From assembly GCA_964016885.1 (NCBI GenBank), contig OZ024742.1, forward strand, positions 100,006,001 to 100,070,000: a stretch of 64,000 bases of DNA, given 5' to 3'. The notes beneath the pieces were generated by a model. It was given only the letters and a program-made list of their open reading frames with translations. It was not told where the DNA came from and did not search any database. Both the position numbers and the translations under genes were made by a program. This document shows positions 6,184 through 64,000 of this stretch, piece after piece (position 1 is the first letter of the stretch; every line of letters begins with the position of its first letter). The stretch comes from Eledone cirrhosa. Taxonomy: Eukaryota.

Positions 6184-9100
6184 AATGGCGACCGTTGTGG
6201 TCAGTGTCCGATAATTGGACGTGTGTAATTACGGCTTACATGAAGGCAACATACCATATATTGGAAAAAGTTGAGCTACATTACGCGGTAAGATTACATA
6301 CAATAATTCTACATAAGTGTTTGAACTGTAAGTGTGTTGTAAAACACCTATTTATATGAACGATACATACACTTATGATATATGAACGATACATACACTT
6401 TAACATATAAATGCAACGTTGTTATATTACATTTATAAAGAAATATAAAAGTAACGTTTTCGATTCAGAAACAAAAATATAAGTGTTTGAACTGTGAATG
6501 TTGTGAATATGTTGTAGAACACCTATTTATATGAATGATACATAAACTTTAACATATAAATACAGCATTGTTATATTATATTACATTCGTAAAGGAATAT
6601 ACTAAGTAACGGTTCTTTTTGTTCTCGATTCAAACGATTCAAGAACAACGTTTAAAACACAGTTGTAGAATTAAAAACTAACTGAAAAGAAATATTACCC
6701 AAGCTGTGAATAACTTTAAATTTGATTCTGACAGAACTTTGTCGTAACTTTTAAAGAAGATCATCGACTATTTAAAAAAAATAAATACAAAATATTAGTG
6801 AATAGACGAACTCATCATGGCAAAAAGTACAAGTCTCCTTCGACCAAATCGCAATTACAACCGTTGTATACAGTGGAGCTACGAGCTTAACAAAGAATTA
6901 TATGAAGCATACAAACAATCTGAACCCCAAAAGTTCGGTTTTATGCAAAGGCTAAAAACTTTATGGAACTCCAAACACCCAGAATTAGACTTTTCTCCAA
7001 AGCATCTAAATGAACAGGCAAAACGTATCATTAGATGTAAATTGATACATCTAACGGAATCGAGTGATACTACAAATACAGCCCTTGTAGACAACCACCC
7101 CACCTCCACTGACAGACAAAGAGAATGGCCGGCTAAATCTAACAGTGAACAGCTCACCAACAATTTTGCTGAAATCCATCCCACTTCCACTGAAGAACAG
7201 CGAGAAAGGTCAGCTGACTCTAGTAGTAATTGTCACCACATCAACAACGAGGCTGCAATTCATGACTCTACTGAACAAACAGAGCACCAAAAACTTGTGG
7301 GCACCCTACAAGTGATATGGAACGATATGTTTCAAGAGATACACAGCCTTAATGTGAGTGACAGACCATACAACACTAGAGTCAGTAAAGAACCCACTAA
7401 ATTGGAATTGGAAGCGGTGAACGAAATAGCTGGCAATTATCTGAAGGCTATACGATCTAAAGGTGTAGAAACGACATTTGAAACGCTCAATGTTTTGTTA
7501 TATGTTTCAGCTGTCACATTGCTATCATATAACACACATCTAAAACCACGCAATCAAGATACAAACAGAAAGCCTGAACCAGCGTGGATGCGAAATTTAA
7601 AAACCAAAATTTTGTCCCTGAGACGAAGTATCTCACACATCGCAGTCGTTATGAAATGCAACATAGAGAGAAACTTCACACGACACCAGGAAGACCTAAA
7701 GAAAAAGTTAGAGAGACGATTTGGAGATACCAAATTTAAAACTTTGAACTCCAAATTACACCAGTTGAAACAACAACTCACAGCTACAACAGAAAGACTA
7801 AAATATAAGTCAACAGCCCATAAACGACAAGTGCTAAATAGATTGTTTGCCAGAGATCCTAAATCAGTTTATCGCAGCTTCGGTGGCAAAAGCTCAATCC
7901 CTGTAAACGACACCCCTTCAAAAGAACAGGTTGAGAACTACTGGAGATCTGTATGGGAAACGGATGACGGATTCAACAGACAAGCTAATTGGCTAAAACA
8001 ACTGGAACAGGACTACTGCCAACATGTCCAGACAAAACAATATGACATAGATGGGTCAATACTGGAAACAGCTCTACAGAAAATGTCGAATAGGAAATCG
8101 CCAGGCCCAGACCTCATTACAGGATACTGGTTGAAGAATTTCACTTTCTATCGGCAAGATCTCATACGGCTGTTTACAGAAACCATTAAGGGCACACAAG
8201 AACTGCCCAGATGGTTATCAACTGCCACTACTCTCCTCATTCCCAAAAATAGCCAAACCACCCTTGCTAAAAATTACCGCCCAATTGCCTGCCAAAACAT
8301 CATGTATAAATTATATACTGGGTGCCTTAACCTGTTCTTACAGGATCACTGTGCTACCAACAACATCATAACACCTGAGCAAGCTGGTGGAAAGAGGGAG
8401 GTGTGGGGTTGCATAGATCACCTACTAACTAACAAAATGATTCAGGAAAAAACAACAAAGAATCGCAGAAACATGACTGTCGTGTGGCTGGACTATCAAA
8501 AAGCATTTGATAGTGTACCTCATGGGTGGATTATTAAGGCTTTACAGTTAGCTAAAGTCCCACAACCATTAGTAGCTGCTGTTGAACGCCTGACCAAGAA
8601 CTGGTACACCAATTTGATCCTTAGAGGTGAGAAGGAGCAGGTTAAGACTGATAGGATACATTACCAGAAGGGCATCTTTCAGGGTGATAGCTTGTCAGTA
8701 CTACTCTTCGTTCTCTCACTGAATCCACTATCTTACCTACTCAGGAAACAAGGTGGACAAAGAAGTGGGCCCAGAAGTATCTCCCATCTTTTCTTTGTTG
8801 ATGACCTGAAGTTGTATGGGCCAAATATCAATGACATCAAGAAACAATTGGACCTCATTACACAATTTTCAACCGACATCAAAATGAAATTTGGTGAGTC
8901 CAAGTGTGCATATTTGGCAGTAAAACGTGGAAGAGCTGTGCCCTCCTCTAGAAATCTAGATATGAACGGCCTGACAATACAACCTCTGCAGTCAGGTGAC
9001 AACTACAGATATCTTGGACAGGATGAGAATGTCAGATATGATGGACCCATAAATAAGGAGAGAACCAGAACTGAATACCTCAGAAGAGTAAAAAAAATAT

Positions 9101-10430
9101 GGTCATCAGAACTGTCAGCATACAACAAATACATTGCCCACAATACCTATACTGTGCCAATTATAACGCCAACATTTGGCCTACTGAACTGGTCATTGCA
9201 AGAACTAAGTGAGATGGATGTTAGAACTCGTAAACTTCTCAGTGTTACTGGGAACTTTAACATCAATGGTGATGTGGATAGGCTATACTTCTCACGCAAG
9301 GAAGGTGGCCGGGGTCTAAAATCAATATTAACAACATATGAGACCCGGATAGTAACACTGAAGCAACACCTTCAACAGAGGAAAAAGGTTGGCGACCATC
9401 TTGCTCAGGTTTATGAGCATGAAAAAAGAAATATCATTAGAATAGCGACTGATCTGGAGGAGAGATATGGAATAAAGCCTGATATAAATCTCTCACCCAG
9501 AGAAATCGGAAGATCCTATTCAATGTTCAAACAAGAAAAAAAAATTGACCAATTTACAGAGAAAGTTGTGCATGGATACTTGAGGCGTAAAACACAGACC
9601 ATAGAGGGGATAAACCACTCAAAAAGCCTGGCATGGAGTTCCGACAAGTTTATGACATCACACCTTGAGGGATATCTCTATGCAATACAGGAACAAGAAC
9701 TCCCTACCAAATATCTGCTGCACAAAAGAGGAGGGCCAGCAGCTGACAATAAATGTAGGCTATGTAAAACAAAGATCGAGGATGTAAGCCACATTGTTGC
9801 CAGCTGCGAAAGAATGTCATCTCGCTACTACCTCCCCATGAGACACGATGGGATAGCTAGAACTATCTGGAACGCACTTCGGAAAACAAAATTAACAACA
9901 AACGAGGAAGAATATATTGAGACAGATGGCACTAAGGAATACTGGTGGAACCTGAAAATAAAAACTGCCACCAAATTAAAGCACAACCGGCCTGATATTG
10001 TAGTTTGGGACCACACATTGAAAACGTGTTCTGTTGTGGAGATCAGCTGCCCACTTGATGTAAACGTTGTCAGAAAAATACAGGAGAAGGAGGACATCTA
10101 CGGACCATTGATGAGGAGCTTACAAATCCAGTATCCAAGATACACCTTTAGCTTCATACCCATCATTATTGGTGCTACGGGTTATATACCAACCCGCTTG
10201 GACCAAAGTATGACCGAACTTGGATTTGCGGACAAAAAGCGCAGCTCCCTAATTCATAGTCTACAAATGGCTGCGATAGCTGGCACCTTCAAAATATGCA
10301 AAACATTCTTGCGATTCAAGGGATGACAATTTCTTTTCTTTTACAACCTTGCCACCAGGAAGGTGGCCGGTCAAAAAAATATACTCGAAATTAAGAGAAA
10401 GAGAAAACATACATACATACAAACATACAT
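6184..10430 (+). mobile_element. Apparently full-length R4/Dong-like LINE between (CATA)n tracts
   Basis: Starts right after (CATA)n at 6089-6183. Has a ~630 bp 5' region with an internal duplication (~6313-6480 vs ~6481-6640), the intact ORF, and a short 3' UTR with the hairpin GCCACC/GGTGGC, ending in CATA units at ~10407-10430. Confidence 0.8.
6817..10326 (+). CDS. Single ORF (1169 aa) of an R4/Dong-clade non-LTR retrotransposon: reverse transcriptase + CCHC finger + restriction-like endonuclease
   Basis: Uninterrupted ORF with RT motifs KSPGPD, NYRPIAC, WLDYQKAFDSVPH, GIFQGDSLS, FVDDLKLY and YLG. C-terminus has CRLC..H..C, RHD, RPDIVV, EISCP and KEDIY (RLE). No APE domain. Confidence 0.95.
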   Translation: MAKSTSLLRPNRNYNRCIQWSYELNKELYEAYKQSEPQKFGFMQRLKTLWNSKHPELDFSPKHLNEQAKRIIRCKLIHLTESSDTTNTALVDNHPTSTDRQREWPAKSNSEQLTNNFAEIHPTSTEEQRERSADSSSNCHHINNEAAIHDSTEQTEHQKLVGTLQVIWNDMFQEIHSLNVSDRPYNTRVSKEPTKLELEAVNEIAGNYLKAIRSKGVETTFETLNVLLYVSAVTLLSYNTHLKPRNQDTNRKPEPAWMRNLKTKILSLRRSISHIAVVMKCNIERNFTRHQEDLKKKLERRFGDTKFKTLNSKLHQLKQQLTATTERLKYKSTAHKRQVLNRLFARDPKSVYRSFGGKSSIPVNDTPSKEQVENYWRSVWETDDGFNRQANWLKQLEQDYCQHVQTKQYDIDGSILETALQKMSNRKSPGPDLITGYWLKNFTFYRQDLIRLFTETIKGTQELPRWLSTATTLLIPKNSQTTLAKNYRPIACQNIMYKLYTGCLNLFLQDHCATNNIITPEQAGGKREVWGCIDHLLTNKMIQEKTTKNRRNMTVVWLDYQKAFDSVPHGWIIKALQLAKVPQPLVAAVERLTKNWYTNLILRGEKEQVKTDRIHYQKGIFQGDSLSVLLFVLSLNPLSYLLRKQGGQRSGPRSISHLFFVDDLKLYGPNINDIKKQLDLITQFSTDIKMKFGESKCAYLAVKRGRAVPSSRNLDMNGLTIQPLQSGDNYRYLGQDENVRYDGPINKERTRTEYLRRVKKIWSSELSAYNKYIAHNTYTVPIITPTFGLLNWSLQELSEMDVRTRKLLSVTGNFNINGDVDRLYFSRKEGGRGLKSILTTYETRIVTLKQHLQQRKKVGDHLAQVYEHEKRNIIRIATDLEERYGIKPDINLSPREIGRSYSMFKQEKKIDQFTEKVVHGYLRRKTQTIEGINHSKSLAWSSDKFMTSHLEGYLYAIQEQELPTKYLLHKRGGPAADNKCRLCKTKIEDVSHIVASCERMSSRYYLPMRHDGIARTIWNALRKTKLTTNEEEYIETDGTKEYWWNLKIKTATKLKHNRPDIVVWDHTLKTCSVVEISCPLDVNVVRKIQEKEDIYGPLMRSLQIQYPRYTFSFIPIIIGATGYIPTRLDQSMTELGFADKKRSSLIHSLQMAAIAGTFKICKTFLRFKG

Positions 10431-27238: not shown

Positions 27239-27299
27239 TTTATCTGATGAAAGCGCACCAAAATTTGCCTTGGTTGTCCTTGAAATATATATAATAAAA
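27239..27299 (+). ncRNA. Minimal hammerhead motif, same family as the 44251-44586 palindrome
   Basis: TTTAT-CTGATGA...GAAA-TATATATA-ATAAA (stem I TTTAT/ATAAA, palindromic stem III). Confidence 0.55.
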
Positions 27300-33817: not shown

Positions 33818-36483
33818 ATATTGTTATACTTTGGGAGGGTCATATTTGTGTAATATTGCCAGAATTAATAACAGAACACACTCACTGTTTGGTTGGTTTT
33901 CGCTTCTCGCTGTCTTTTATATATATATATCTGCGATCTAACTTACTCGGTCCTCAATGTTGCCATTGACTGACCGACGGTCAAAAATATTACAGATACA
34001 ATATAGACATAAACAGATATATATAGTTTACATAATTTACATAAATCTTTCGTTGCACATCTGCAACATCGTCAGTGGTGTTATATTTTCCTCCTGTTGT
34101 GTTGTATGTCTACGCCATTTTTTATTCAGTCTGTCTATATATTTATTTATTTATTTGCTTGTGTGTTTATTTTATTTTGTCTTCTTTGCGCATGCGTTTG
34201 CGTGTGTGTATAGCGTTATGTTTGCTGTGTGACTAGTGTGTATAGTGTTGTGTTTGCTGGGTGACTAGTGTGTGTTTATGTGCTTGTTGTTATTGTGCTT
34301 GTGTATGTATTTATTTATCTTATTTTATTTACTTATTTATACTTCTCTTAGGTCAGTGTTGTTTGTTTGGGTGTTGTTGCTATTCCACTCATTCTTTCTG
34401 TTTAGCTTTGGTCTTCTAATTTCTATTTCACTGGCCTCTCTGATTTGCCTATCTGCTGGGTCATTTATATGTTTAGATATTATTCTAATTTCTATGTTGT
34501 CTATGTTACCGTCATGTTGTTGTCTAGCATGTTCGTATAGTACTGACCCGTTTTTTCGTCCTTTTAGTTCCCCCCAGTGTTGGTCTATCCTTTCACCTAT
34601 GCTACGAGCTGTCTCACCTATGTATGTTGTTGTCATGTTTCTGCAAGTACTCTCTGTACATCTTATGCTATAGACTACGTTTCTAGTTTTACAGTTTATC
34701 CGGGGGTTCACCTTATATATGATACATTTCCTATTGGTACAGTGGGTTTTCTTAAAAGGGTAGGTTTTGCTGATCAGGGATTTTATGGTGGTTCCTGGCT
34801 TTTCTACCACCTTTATTTTTAAGTGGGTCCTTCTCAGGGCCTTTCTACACTGGTTAGCTAATTTCCCTCCAGGGATGGCGTCCACAAACATGACACTCTG
34901 GTATCTCTGATTGTCGTACCATGATGTGGCTTTCCCTATCTTATGTCTAGCCCTATCTAAGCTATTCCATGATTTGCTCCTGTATAATGGGCAAATTCCT
35001 TTCATGTCCAGTTCTATGAGGGTCTTTTACTTTTCCATGGCTCTTTCGTATACTCTGACTCTGTCTCTTTGGTTGTAGCCAGAGAACTGCACGCGGTTGA
35101 TGAAGTGTTGGATGTGTCTTTCCATTTCTGTTGGGTCGCACATGCTGGACACATTCTTCATCACTCGTACCAAATCTGCGATCAGAATATTAAACTTAGC
35201 ACTACTGGACATTGCTGAGTTTTTGAGTATCAGGTATTTGGAGGCCATGGGTTTAGCATAGTGTGAGTGGAGAATTTGGGCTATCTCGTCTATAGTGTTA
35301 ATCCAGAGTTCTGTGTCTAATACAGGTAGTCTATTGTTAGGGTGTTTGGAAGGGAAGTCGATAGTTACAGTTATACTCTGGTGTATGGAATTAGCTATCT
35401 GCTGGATGCTTTCCATCGTGCTACGTTCTAAATCATGGTTGTCTAGGTAGTCAGTGTCGTAGGTAAGTCTAAATAGGAGGCCCAGTTCGTCTGTGTCGAC
35501 GTCGCAGAACTCCACCTCACTCTCAATGATCATCTCCACACATCTTTTCACAGCAAAATCAATGTTAATGGATGGGTACAGTGACACCACATCCATGCTG
35601 CCTATTATGCAGTTGGATAGGTTCCTGTTTTTGTTGCACTCACTGATTCTGCTGAGGAGGTCCTCTGTACTGTCACATACATCTGGGGACATCTTGATTA
35701 TGGGGCGTATAACCATTGAGAGGAAGTAGGAAATCCTGTAGTTGCTAGCTATATTAGCTCCGCATACGGGTCTTGTTGGTGGTCCTGTTGTCGGGTCGTC
35801 GACTGTCTTGTGGTCTTTGCGGAGTCCATATAAGGGTGGTATGCTATTGTTAGACGCCTGGAAGTTGTTGGCGGTGCGTCTGCTTGGCTTTAGGATGTCA
35901 GTCCACATCATCATGTGAGCGTTGAGGATTTTTTCTCTCCCATCGTGTGTTTGTTGTGCAACTTCGCTCGTGTTGGTGATGTGGGGTTGTATAGCCTCGA
36001 TGTAGTTCGGCATGCTATCTATTGACATCCTACCAGACTTATCTGTGGGTAGACACACTACCTCACCATCCCTTGTGCGCTGCTTGAGGCTAACCAAGCC
36101 TTCTACAGGTTTTCTCCCAAGTTGTTGGGCCTCTGGTCTGCTCTGTCTCTTAGTATACCTGTCTACTATTTGTCTAATCTTATTTCTAGCTATGGTGAAC
36201 TGTGCCTCTGTCTCGTCATCTATTTGTTGTGGTATGCAACTGACGATGTTGCAGATGTGCAACGAAAGATTTATGTAAATTATGAAAACTATATATATGT
36301 GTTTATGTCTATATTGTATCTGTAATATTTTTGACCGTCGGTCAGTCAATGGCAACATTGAGGACCGAGTAAGCTAGATTGCAGATATAAGAGACAGCGA
36401 GAAGCGAAAACCAACCAAACAGTGAGTATGTTCTGTTATTAATTCTGGCAATATTACACAAATATGACCCTCCCCAAGTATAG

Positions 36484-40127: not shown

Positions 40128-43292
<3,165 letters not shown>

Positions 43293-43369
43293 ATATGAGG
43301 GAATGAATTCTGTGAGAGAACATCGTTATTTTTTCTCCCTCATATCAAGAATTTGAAGACAATTCATTT

Positions 43370-60083: not shown

Positions 60084-61003
60084 TAAATGGAATAGAATGA
60101 AAGGAAATTTCATTTCTCACTCTTAGTACGGCACTTACTTAAATGTAAGTATGCATGTATGTATACGTACATACATATATGTATACAGACGTACAGTAGT
60201 ATGTATATATATACATACATGCACACACATATATATATATATGCACGTATCGTTTTACTGAACATTTATTATAATGCTCGGTTTGTTTGTTTGTAAACAA
60301 ACAAACAGCCCGAATTACGCCGTACAGTGTTTAGGCAACCCCTTCACCTTTTTGTTCAACAATGACACAGGAACGATGTACTAGTTTCAAGCTTATTAGG
60401 TATCGAAATTTCAAACAAACAAACCGAGCATTATAATAAATGTTCAGTAAACCGATATGTGCATATATATATGTGTGCATGTATGTATATATATACATAC
60501 TACTGTACGTCTGTATACATATATGTATGTACGTATACATACATGCATACTTAGATTTAAGTAAGTGCCGTACTAAGAGTGAGAAATGAAATTTCGTTTC
60601 ATTCTATTCCATTATATCGTTTTCGGTGTGCCCGGCCGACTGAACTCACTCGATATGCAAATTAGGCTGCTCAGCCGTTAATATGCATAAGGAAAGTATA
60701 TACTTTCAGACGTTCAACCATCTGGCAGGTAGGTATACGATGCTGACGATAGCTAATAAGCTTGAAACTAGTACATCGTTCCTGTGTCAGTGTTGAACAA
60801 AAAGGTGACGTGGTTGTCTAAACACTGTACGGCGTAATTCGGGCTGTTTGTTTACAAACAAACAAACCGAGCATTATAATAAATGTTCGGTAAACCGATA
60901 CGTGCATATATATATGTGTGCATGTATGTATATATATACATACTACTGTACGTCTGCATACCTATATGTATGTACGTATACATACATGCATACTTACATT
61001 TAC

Positions 61004-61005
<2 letters not shown>
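60084..61005. mobile_element. Non-coding HHR-bearing element with nested inverted duplications
   Basis: 60084-60292 is inverted against 60412-60615, and 60752-61002 is inverted against ~60138-60399. HHR at 60737. TA flanks. Confidence 0.75.
60737..60779 (+). ncRNA. Minimal type I hammerhead ribozyme
   Basis: Stem I ACGATG/CATCGT, core CTGACGA, stem II AGCT/AGCT, then GAAACTAGTA (palindromic ACTAGT, GTA triplet). Confidence 0.8.
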
Positions 61006-61067
<62 letters not shown>

Positions 61068-61914
61068 CTCTCCTTCTCTGTCTCTTATATAGAAATATAA
61101 AGAGAGGGAGAGAATTTTATACTTTGGGAGAGTCAGGCTACCCATAAAAATCCATTCCAGTTGAGTTTAACGTCGGTTTTATTAATAGTCGTTACAGCTT
61201 TGGACAAACTTTAACAATATTTCTCCTGGCTATTGACGTTCTCATCCACCATAATTCTGGGGTCGATAAAATAAAGTATTAGTAACTTACTGGAGTCGAT
61301 TTCATTGATTTCGGTTCCCAATTTCTGGCCTTGTACTTAAATTAGAAATCAATACTAGACATGGAGCGAATCCATTCCTCGCGTAATTTAGAGACCAAGT
61401 GGGTATTTAATTGTCATATTTATTTCTCAAACCTCTTTCATCGCACATTGTGACCTTCTCAATGACTATTCTTACTTCTAATTTTCGTTTTATTTATCCC
61501 GTTTTTTTCGTTTTGTTTTTTTCTGAAAGACAACACACAAACTGCCCAGCGTTCAACGTTGATATAATCCTATATCTACTCAATCGGATTTATATGACTT
61601 TAGTTTCAACAAAAACAACACCCTTTCCACGCCTGCAAAAACTCACCACCTCTGCCAAGCTCCATCAACGAGTACATTGAAATCATATCTCGAAGACATT
61701 CAAGAATTTTAATGAAAATTCTCTGAAGAGGAATTAGAGAAATATGGTACAATTTACATAGAAAACATAATTTGAAACAAAAGCAGAATCTACTAATACT
61801 TCTCACAGACTTAACAATCTTTCTATCAATGTATCCTATTATTTATTTAAGTATCTATCTATTTCTGCATCTATCTAACTACCTATATATCTGTGCCTCT
61901 CTTTATCTTTATAT

Positions 61915-62555
61915 AACTCGACTGGTTCTCGTCAGAACCACCCCTCCCGCTCTTGCAACTGCAAGATTTTGAAAACAGGCAAAAATATACTTTTTTCGTC
62001 TGTGTAAAGGAGGTGGTTAATCTCATCTGCATATGAAGCTGTATACGTTGGCTCAACTTAATATAGAATAGAACCAGAATTTAGCTTCGAACATAGCTGT
62101 ATACAAATATGTATTTGAAATTCGTATTTCTAATGAAATACGGTATTTTTATAAATAAACATTTAGAAAGCCATAACTATGAAAATGATTGACAGCTTAC
62201 GCCACCATGCGGTGTCCGGCAAAGTTGAGCCAACTAATACAGCTTCATATGCAGATGAGATTAACCACCTCATTTACACAGGCGAAAAAACTATATTTTC
62301 GCCTGTTTTCAAAGTTTAGCAGTTGCAAGAGCGGGAGGGATCGTCCTGACAAGAACCAGTTGAGTTCGAAATTCATCGACGATTGTCCCCCTTGCTTCAA
62401 CCACACACCACTGGGTGGCGTTAGCTGGCAGTGCTTTTTTCTATAGCTATGGCTTTCTAAATGTTTATTTATAAACAAACCGTATTTCTTTAGAAATACA
62501 AAATTCAAAGACGTATTTGTGTACAGCTATGTTCGAAGCAAAATCCTGGTTCTAT

Positions 62556-62560
<5 letters not shown>
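61915..62560. mobile_element. Non-coding HHR-bearing element with inverted partial copies
   Basis: 61915-62060 is inverted against 62222-62367, and ~62065-62180 is inverted against 62440-62558. Confidence 0.75.
62340..62383 (+). ncRNA. Minimal type I hammerhead ribozyme (G8 mutated in this copy)
   Basis: Stem I ATCGTC/GACGAT, core CTGACAA (CTGACGA in the inverse partial copy near 61929-61935), stem II GAAC/GTTC, then GAAATTCATC. Confidence 0.7.
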
Positions 62561-62645
<85 letters not shown>

Positions 62646-62818
62646 CATAAGACGGGATTAAATCGCCACAAATGTTTATTGCATTATATATATATTTCTG
62701 TTACATGGTTATTCATGTGATTTTGTCAGATGCTTATGCAATCATTGGTGCAGCTATGCAATTATTGTGATATGCCAGGGGTCATGCACGTTTATCCACT
62801 GCGAAGTGATTTGGCATA

Positions 62819-62851
<33 letters not shown>

Positions 62852-63057
62852 GCAATTTAAGTTTTTCGAATATTAATAATAATATTCGATTCGTTTGCAA
62901 CTATACAAACAGCTTCTTTTTTTTTTTTTAGAAACATTAGTGTCTGCAGTTCTGTTTACATGCCAACACAAGAGCAAGAATGAGGAGCTCATTCTACTGA
63001 CATGGCTTTAAAAAGGAGGCAGTTTGAATAATTGCAAACGAATTGAATATCATTATC

Positions 63058-63323
63058 AGTAGAGTCTCGGACGCCATGTTTTGACGCATAGAGTTATAGT
63101 CCTTGCCATTCTGAGTTCAAATCCCGTCGAGGTTAACTTTGCCTTGGCAGTATAGGTAGAGGGTTGGACGCCATGCTTTCTAGCATAGTTACGTCCCTTT
63201 ATGGTTTGAGTTCAAATCCCGCCGAGGTTAACTTTGCCTTTCATCCTTACGGGGTCGATAAAATAAAGTACCAGTAATGCACTGAGTAATTGCTGGCTTT
63301 GTGACAAAAGTAGAAACAATTAT
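63058..63323 (+). mobile_element. SINE family 2 (partial + full) inserted into the HHR element
   Basis: Two SINE starts (63058 and ~63144) interrupt sequence that is contiguous at 63750-63770. Confidence 0.85.
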
Positions 63324-63606
63324 TAATATTCGAAAAACTCAGATTACATTTATTGTATTCAACCATGTAGAGCGATAATTTTTTTTAAAATTTGAATATG
63401 GCAAAGTCGGCCATTAATTGCTCGTATACAGGAAACTGACTGGCCTATCTGCTGATATGCAAATCTGGCTGATCAGTGATTCTGCTAATATCTAGATCTG
63501 TCTGATCAGCCAGTCTGTTAATATGCAAATCAGACCGATCAGTCACTGTATATTTTAGAAAATATCATATATTTTCACTAGCTCTGACAGCTAGCAGGTG
63601 AACAGT

Positions 63607-63654
63607 GAACTGCACTGATGAAGGGTAATACCCAGAAACATTTGTCTGCAGTTC
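63607..63654 (+). ncRNA. Type I hammerhead ribozyme
   Basis: Stem I GAACTGCA/TGCAGTTC (8 bp), core CTGATGA, stem II GGGT/ACCC, then GAAAC-ATTT-GTC. Confidence 0.82.
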
Positions 63655-64000
63655 GGTTTACATGCCAACACAAGAGCAAGAATGAGGGGTTGATTCTACT
63701 GATGTGGCTTTTAAAAAGAGGCCGTTTGCACGATTGCAAACGAATCGAATATCATTATTGATATTCGAAAAACTCAGATTACATTTATTGTATTCAGCCA
63801 TCTAGACCGATAATTTTTTTAAAAATTATTATTTATATATATATATACATAAATAATAGTCCAGAAATAGCCGTCGAAACGGCTTGAGCTCTGCCGTCGG
63901 GGTCATACATTTTCCTATATATATACAGAGAGAGAGAAAGAGAAAGAGAGGGATAGAGAGAGAGAGAGGGGGGAGAGTCAGCGGTGCGGAGAGCGGGGAG

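Follow-up and report, generated by a model that had tools for sequence, protein, structure and literature searches.

ORF-less hammerhead repeats of Eledone cirrhosa carry a host U6-type motif, a likely built-in promoter, upstream of the ribozyme

Metazoan non-LTR (long terminal repeat) retrozymes are repeats without open reading frames (ORFs), with one type I hammerhead ribozyme per unit, a tandem arrangement and a low GC content. They coexist with autonomous Penelope elements and are proposed to pass through circular intermediates (Cervera and de la Pena 2020, PMC7229834). They are described as intensely transcribed; that paper names no endogenous promoter and uses 'promoter' for T7 constructs only (PMC7229834). 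Three repeats of this kind, A, B and C, were analysed in a stretch of 64,000 nt of the Eledone cirrhosa genome (assembly GCA_964016885.1, 3.0 Gb; contig OZ024742.1, positions 100,006,001 to 100,070,000, forward strand). This stretch is called the window, and coordinates below are window positions unless another contig is named. The units found here are 338-484 nt long, compared with ~170-400 nt in retrozymes (PMC7229834), and they have a host U6-type module in front of the hammerhead. We file A, B and C provisionally as working like non-LTR retrozymes.

Newt satellite 2 is also a hammerhead tandem repeat with an internal promoter of small nuclear RNA (snRNA) type (Coats et al. 1994, via PMC2220036). 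Its promoter is of the RNA polymerase II (Pol II) snRNA type, it is one family and its activity has been shown, whereas here the motif is of the Pol III class and occurs in several dissimilar families known from sequence. The Pol III promoter of the schistosome Sm-alpha-type hammerhead repeats, which resemble short interspersed nuclear elements (SINEs), consists of gene-internal A and B boxes, whereas the module here is an upstream one of type 3. The schistosome repeats share with ours the order of promoter and then hammerhead, and the promoter comes to lie at the 3' end of cleaved multimers, so that tandems are needed (PMC6765202). The hammerheads in the pseudo-LTRs of Penelope elements are minimal, their helix III is palindromic and helix II is preceded by an extra base. 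Partial tandems, 5' copies in inverted orientation, a tail at one end and (TA)n targets are also typical of these elements (PMC4209133, PMC8557442), and all of these traits recur here. A, B and C are unlike Penelope elements in having no ORF, and their module is missing from the 12 autonomous 3' untranslated regions (UTRs) examined. In trypanosomatid Pr77, a ribozyme and a promoter to which TBP and SNAP50 bind likewise occur together at a retroelement end; Pr77 differs in its hepatitis delta virus (HDV)-type ribozyme, its internal downstream promoter and its elements of the long interspersed nuclear element (LINE) type (PMC8190864, PMC6765202). The layout of promoter and then hammerhead is already known from schistosomes and newts, and what is new is a candidate promoter, the host type 3 module, in several dissimilar families of one genome.

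A review of SINEs reports no internal snRNA promoter (PMC4494074). In the literature searched, which did not extend to supplements or to repeat libraries such as Repbase and Dfam, neither these families nor a hammerhead retroelement with a type 3 promoter were described; the families may already be deposited in such libraries. Upstream snRNA promoters are normally lost on retrotransposition. If the module is a promoter, it would explain the expression of gene-less elements and provide a way round this loss. Comparison with the host's own genes delimits the candidate at single-base resolution.

We consider it fairly probable that the U6-type motif and the TATA box of A, B and C, ORF-less hammerhead repeats inserted in the Penelope manner, act as a built-in promoter, which would use host SNAPc and TBP and be followed by read-through, cleavage and copying of circular templates. 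An octamer upstream of each hammerhead had been noticed in an earlier sequence-only reading of the window. It is present at 60655 in A, 62249 in B (ATGCAGAT) and 63457 and 63523 in C, and lies 88 (A), 97 (B) and 92 nt (C) before the core, as that reading had measured. As a unit of its own it did not survive, since it is part of a 12-nt motif, TATGCAAAT(T/G)AG. The genome's own small-RNA genes served as the host-promoter set, with near-identical array copies counted once (loci L221-L280, L329-L346). The 12-mer TATG(C/G)(A/T)AAT(T/G)AG is found at -76 to -79 in seven distinct host promoters (three U6 types, U6atac, RNase MRP and two of selenocysteine tRNA, tRNA-Sec), and their TATA box lies near -30, 46-48 nt beyond the 12-mer. 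It is absent at this position from 16 promoters of U1, U2, U4, U5, U12 and RNase P genes. Their core is instead YCAGY, located at -55 to -58 in the 15 that belong to snRNA genes, and AATT precedes YCAGY by 33 nt in the Pol II-class promoters. A TATA-like box near -30 and a distal TTACCTCCCTT-like motif at -250 to -290 are common to both classes, and the 3' box is AAAATCAGA-like. Left out of the set were 14 dispersed U6 matches, five of six U6atac loci and low-scoring tRNA-Sec matches, which are without the motif and resemble retrocopies or other tRNAs, as well as a group of U6 array copies in which an insertion shifts the motif to -270. As a by-product, the U6-type and U1/U2-type promoter motifs of Eledone cirrhosa would be useful for guide-RNA expression. 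The RNase P RNA gene (L271, G000:C24:12936134-12936474) has a TCAGT core and the distal motif without the U6-type motif, which suggests that it is transcribed by Pol II.

No open frame of at least 120 aa overlaps the part from 58.3 to 64 kb, where the following features lie.

60086..60405, minus strand: inverted, 5'-truncated copy of family A with a ~50-nt tail, a Penelope-type inversion (inverted arms 60086-60236 and 60285-60405; blast of locus L001).
60409..60613, plus strand: 5'-truncated upstream partial copy of family A (60409-60563) with its tail (60564-60613); direct repeat 60409-60563 / 60852-61006, 95%.
60614..61006, plus strand: full unit of family A, period ~443 nt, (TA)n end (repeat comparison; fold z -5.9).
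60654..60666, plus strand: proximal motif of A, TATGCAAATTAGG, of U6/MRP/tRNA-Sec type, 21.2 bits with the host-only profile; its 13 nt are identical to the tRNA-Sec promoter L279.
60697..60702, plus strand: TATA box of A, 42 nt from the octamer and enclosed in a perfect palindrome (60692-60707); start predicted at ~60727, taken as TATA+30.
60737..60779, plus strand: type I hammerhead motif of A; helix III is minimal and palindromic (ACTAGT), the extended stem I covers ~60712-60798, and cleavage is predicted after 60773.
61915..62215, minus strand: inverted truncated pieces of family B (inverted arms 61915-62059 and 62064-62185).
62222..62559, plus strand: full unit of family B, ~338 nt, an older decayed copy with 86-92% identity to other copies.
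62248..62260, plus strand: proximal motif of B, TATGCAGATGAGA in the window and ATGCAAATGAG in the family majority; the window copy scores 13.8 bits and relatives 18.3.
62292..62296, plus strand: TATA-like box of B, 43 nt from the octamer and part of a hairpin; start predicted at ~62321.
62339..62384, plus strand: hammerhead motif of B, mutated in the window copy (core CTGACAA, helix III palindrome lost; motif scan and family comparison).
62846..63392, strand unassigned: inverted piece (62846-62921), partial tandem (62941-63056) and tail piece (63319-63392) of family C, interrupted by unrelated short repeats.
63390..63827, plus strand: full unit of family C, ~435 nt; a T-run marks the unit junction (repeat comparison).
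63436..63543, plus strand: three 33-nt repeats of C (repeat family D8), each with an octamer-like site and then GATCAG; octamers at 63457 and 63523, the middle one decayed in the window; the last TCAGT (63539) is at a position equivalent to the core of U1/U2 genes.
63567..63572, plus strand: TATA-like box of C, ~45 nt from the third octamer, with 0 departures in 180 cells; predicted start ~63596-63598.
63606..63655, plus strand: type I hammerhead motif of C; predicted cleavage after 63646.

Hammerheads were called by our own motif scan, with the CUGANGA, GAAA and UH core and stems I-III as criteria for type I. The cores in the window lie at 60743, 62346 and 63615, with stem I beginning at 60737, 62339 and 63606. 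Three well-formed type I hammerheads had been proposed at these places. The core is intact in A and C and in the family majority of B (CTGACGA, palindromic helix III ATGCAT), and the claim fails for the window copy of B, where the core is CTGACAA and helix III is TTCA. Between B and B2, stems I and II have changed on both sides. Minimal palindromic helices III are present in A and B and an extra base before helix II in A and C; Penelope hammerheads with these two traits are thought to act as dimers (PMC4209133). In a systematic sample of 800 kb (80 evenly spaced 10-kb stretches from six contigs) there were 61 hammerhead-like motifs, versus 0 after shuffling. A check against the Rfam models, which the sequence-only reading had suggested, gave no hammerhead match at the gathering score, nor one when E values up to 10 were allowed. 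The ribozyme calls are thus based on our own scan, together with the core, the stems and the variation within families. Sub-threshold Rfam microRNA matches on an AT-rich hairpin were dismissed as chance. The palindromic TATA-like boxes were found as described, with a perfect 16-nt palindrome in A and imperfect ones in B and C. The GCAG that follows them is also present, as the 5' arm of the extended stem I; its AG falls at TATA+30, the predicted start. Because GCAG pairs in stem I, it was ruled out as a separate promoter element.

A profile made from host promoters only gave 21.2 bits in A, 13.8 in the window copy of B (18.3 in its relatives) and 14.7-17.2 in C, and the host genes themselves scored 12.4-20.6 bits in leave-one-out runs. 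In the 800-kb sample this profile had 45 matches of at least 12 bits. When matches were assigned by reading their flanks, 18 of the top 20 lay inside hammerhead repeats, and the repeats among the top matches were A, C, a relative of B, a relative of A (family E) and an old family, H. A motif of at least 13 bits stood upstream of the core in A (45/50), C (15/22), B (6/9) and E (5/6). Among 183 hammerhead motifs, it precedes 71 of the 87 in these four clusters versus 0 of the 96 in 19 others. The exact pattern of motif, TATA and core, which does not count family C, occurs 26,530 times genome-wide versus 0 for the reversed pattern, and the module is in this way conserved across genomic copies, a point that the sequence-only reading had left to be checked. 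Intact modules, of which there are at least 26,530, could be competitors for snRNA transcription factors. In copies selected by similarity to the window, the exact octamer ATGCAAAT, which is that of the B family, was present in 70/80 of A, 19/32 of B and 30/30 of C. Two A lineages have 25 and 13 subfamily-diagnostic changes, and all of them fall outside the 13-mer and the TATA box. From its match to host genes, we identify the octamer of A, B and C as the host's U6-class proximal element, which may be either the SNAPc site or an Oct site placed close to it. The idea of an snRNA-like promoter is supported by the motif shared with U6, MRP and tRNA-Sec genes; the module looks like a promoter with this proximal motif, and not with a distal Oct enhancer as in vertebrates.

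Conservation of this kind could also mean that the module is kept as RNA structure or as a binding site of a Penelope protein. Transcription would then be by host read-through only, and the U6 match would be accidental or a relic without activity. Taken as a whole, the A unit folds far better than its shuffles (z -5.9, 0/100), with the octamer and the TATA box in hairpins. One A subfamily has changed the partner strand with the pairing kept, and the spacing is unlike that of host genes. However, B, C and E keep the same 12-mer and its distance to TATA despite different neighbouring sequence and pairing partners, and the match reaches past the octamer into the host-specific KAG. In addition, motif-less hammerhead families spread equally well, which indicates that the motif is not needed for mobilisation. 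We regard a role as RNA structure or protein-binding site as quite unlikely.

An initial search gave ~1,900-2,600 candidates for each of A, B and C, with 40 of them scored. The families were present in 11, 3 and 5 of the 80 sampled stretches, respectively; provided that the sample is typical, this extrapolates to ~40,000, ~11,000 and ~19,000 loci. The units measure ~443, ~338 and ~435 nt, have no ORF and one hammerhead each, and occur as tandem copies. Copies at 90 loci of the three families end at a fixed 3' position in (TA)n. Partial tandems with truncated 5' ends are seen among them, as are inverted 5' copies, and a tail, which measures ~50 nt at most, is present at only one end. These features together make up the Penelope insertion pattern (PMC8557442). 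The architecture at the 90 loci agrees with the proposal that these are ORF-less, Penelope-mobilised, hammerhead-bearing repeats, and we identify A, B and C on this basis as high-copy ORF-less hammerhead repeats with a Penelope-type insertion structure. The best local alignments of A-C, A-E, B-C and C-E fall on the module. The stretch that A and C had been said to share is their best local alignment (score 31, reached by 0/200 shuffles); only A-C and A-E beat all 200 shuffles, while A-B and B-C do not. By these alignments, A, B and C represent separate families that hardly resemble each other outside the module. The single promoter-carrying family once envisaged is replaced by several dissimilar ones, and its conserved snRNA-type module is retained.

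The 5' ends of the copies are spread evenly across the whole unit, promoter included, and no pile-up was seen at the predicted start or cleavage site. Promoter-less SINE-like copying was therefore ruled out as the main route. ORF-free head-to-tail arrays have 7 to ~30 units. Two arrays of family E were seen at G000:C1:5738350-5751969 (~30 units) and C1:14044559-14050763 (~14 units), each with array-specific variants. In one long E array, the divergence was 0.23% within the array and 3.27% from other loci, which fits both a single template and local amplification.

Penelope pseudo-LTRs contain a promoter and a hammerhead themselves (PMC6765202), and A, B and C might be solo pseudo-LTRs, that is 3' UTRs, of unsampled autonomous Penelope elements, with the module as an ordinary mRNA promoter. 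In one autonomous family (L204, L205, L208, L216, L200), the 3' UTR hammerhead is indeed preceded by TATA and CCAAT-like boxes, a layout that we read as ordinary Pol II, and one B locus adjoins a Penelope ORF. GIY-YIG elements are abundant, with 10,596 candidates, and the loci examined were the best 50 of these. In this sample, blastn of the ends of A, B and C against the 3' UTRs gave no match other than nested copies. The upstream motif was found in 0/12 autonomous Penelope 3' UTRs (best 7.4 bits), and for the sampled families this bears out the view that the elements are not 3' UTR pieces of autonomous Penelope elements. A Penelope-protein match was present at 3/90 loci of A, B and C. The B copy beside the Penelope ORF was ruled out as the pseudo-LTR of that ORF, because the element ends in a different hammerhead family. 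No A, B or C unit was found beside a reverse transcriptase (RT)/GIY-YIG ORF as its own repeat among the sampled autonomous families, and the ORF-free arrays also argue against a pseudo-LTR origin, which we hold to be highly improbable. Another Penelope family (L217, L218) has sites like the distal snRNA motif in its 3' UTR (13-14 bits) and a degenerate hammerhead-like core.

Several observations weigh against a built-in U6-type promoter. The distance from motif to TATA is 42 nt in A and H, 43 in B and E and 45 in C, versus 46-48 in the host, and the corresponding spacing of insect U6 genes is tightly conserved (PMC1761439). The host distal element is weak in B (9.5 bits) and was not seen in A, C and E. 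The motif is lacking in the RNase P gene and the four signal recognition particle (SRP) RNA loci examined. Motif and TATA box also lie within the predicted RNA hairpins. In B there is a fixed T-run ~75 nt after the core (14/23 copies), so Pol III could not copy the whole B unit. Divergence within and between insertions of A is equal (7.5% each), and in an A2 array it is 0.17 versus 0.23%. Among the GIY-YIG loci sampled, no mobilising Penelope family was found by DNA similarity.

An alternative is that the module serves Pol II alone. The U6-type motif would then be redirected to Pol II by the reduced distance to TATA together with a YCAG core like that of U1/U2 genes, as in newt satellite 2, and T-runs would be irrelevant. 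In all five families the spacing is below that of host Pol III genes. A YCAG core does lie 26-29 nt before TATA in A (5.2 bits) and C (7.2 bits). These scores are borderline; host Pol II promoters have 6.2-15.3 bits and host Pol III ones -4 to -13, and 3% of random windows reach 4 bits. Copies also extend past runs of T5-T17. On the other hand, the core is lacking in B (-2.5 bits) and E (-5.7 bits), and among host genes the 12-mer is confined to the Pol III class. The transcribed part of A has no T-runs (none in 29/29 copies over 290 nt from the predicted start). The first T-run comes at +337 in A and +272 in E, and C has T9-17 at its junction; these are unit ends, and the runs there are like Pol III terminators. 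We believe that a promoter for Pol II only is unlikely.

Returning to the built-in U6-type promoter, the motif match to host genes, the fixed spacing, the copy number, the tandem, inverted and tail architecture and the promoter-including copies were established by sequence comparison, and from these we infer the later steps. Host SNAPc and TBP would, by analogy, bind the module and initiate transcription ~15-25 nt upstream of the hammerhead core. The unit-end T-run would stop most transcripts, which would be Pol III small RNAs of roughly 115-340 nt. Since the copies include the promoter and contain sequence beyond T5-T17 runs, the mobile RNA that is copied must be a read-through product. A read-through fraction, made by Pol II on the same promoter or by leaky Pol III in A, would enter the next unit; type 3 promoters can load Pol II (PMC11340601). 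Hammerheads dimerised through the palindromic helix III would cut this RNA to unit length, and the unit-length RNAs would then carry the promoter sequence at their 3' end. They may be circularised and copied more than once round into (TA)n sites by a Penelope reverse transcriptase/GIY-YIG protein, and circularisation and copying of more than one round have been proposed for retrozymes (PMC7229834). Such copying would regenerate tandems with the promoter upstream of the ribozyme.

A wider scheme, which we put forward tentatively and hold to be rather doubtful, is that host snRNA promoters of both classes were captured repeatedly and independently, the U6 type in A/E, B, C and H and the U1/U2 type in F. 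Hammerhead cleavage and circular templates would solve the problem of the external promoter, and the 1-6 nt shorter spacing would retune the U6 motif for read-through. If capture of both classes is true, the elements would form a SINE-like class driven from upstream type 3 promoters. This class would have scattered over 25,000 SNAPc-type sites across the genome and would supply it with abundant RNAs of small or circular form. Family F was seen in one array (L140, minus strand, G000:C3 near 190.00 Mb), a 310-nt tandem of at least 11 units. A distal motif lies 33 nt after each core in 11/11 units, ~-257 from the next predicted start. The YCAG core is weak (3.0 bits) and is followed by TATA 27 nt after. 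In this one array, F appears to carry the U1/U2-type set and is a likely counterpart of newt satellite 2, to which it looks closer than A, B and C do.

A GTTT...AAAC hairpin downstream of the ribozyme recurs in A, B, C and F (60845-60867, 62455-62480 and 63725-63745 in the window), and it is possibly a recognition site of the mobilising protein. A fourth hammerhead family, without the motif, is present in the window at 27244, 44346 (minus strand) and 44490 (plus strand). The same hammerhead type ends an autonomous Penelope copy in L347, so the window copies are probably 3' UTR fragments of that autonomous family. Elsewhere in the window there are two frames on the minus strand (34337-36373 and 40852-43344) that are weakly similar to Penelope proteins, without a Pfam match, and a LINE-like frame of 1174 aa with RVT_1 and zf-RVT on the plus strand (6802-10326).

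In one of the 14 dispersed U6 copies viewed (L234, G000:C10:48072680-48072786, minus strand), the U6 retrocopy abuts with its 3' end, precise to the nucleotide, the fragment that cleavage of another hammerhead family would leave, and an inverted piece of that family lies upstream of the retrocopy. The junction resembles RtcB-ligated U6/LINE-1 chimeras, which have reportedly been observed, and it hints at in vivo cleavage.

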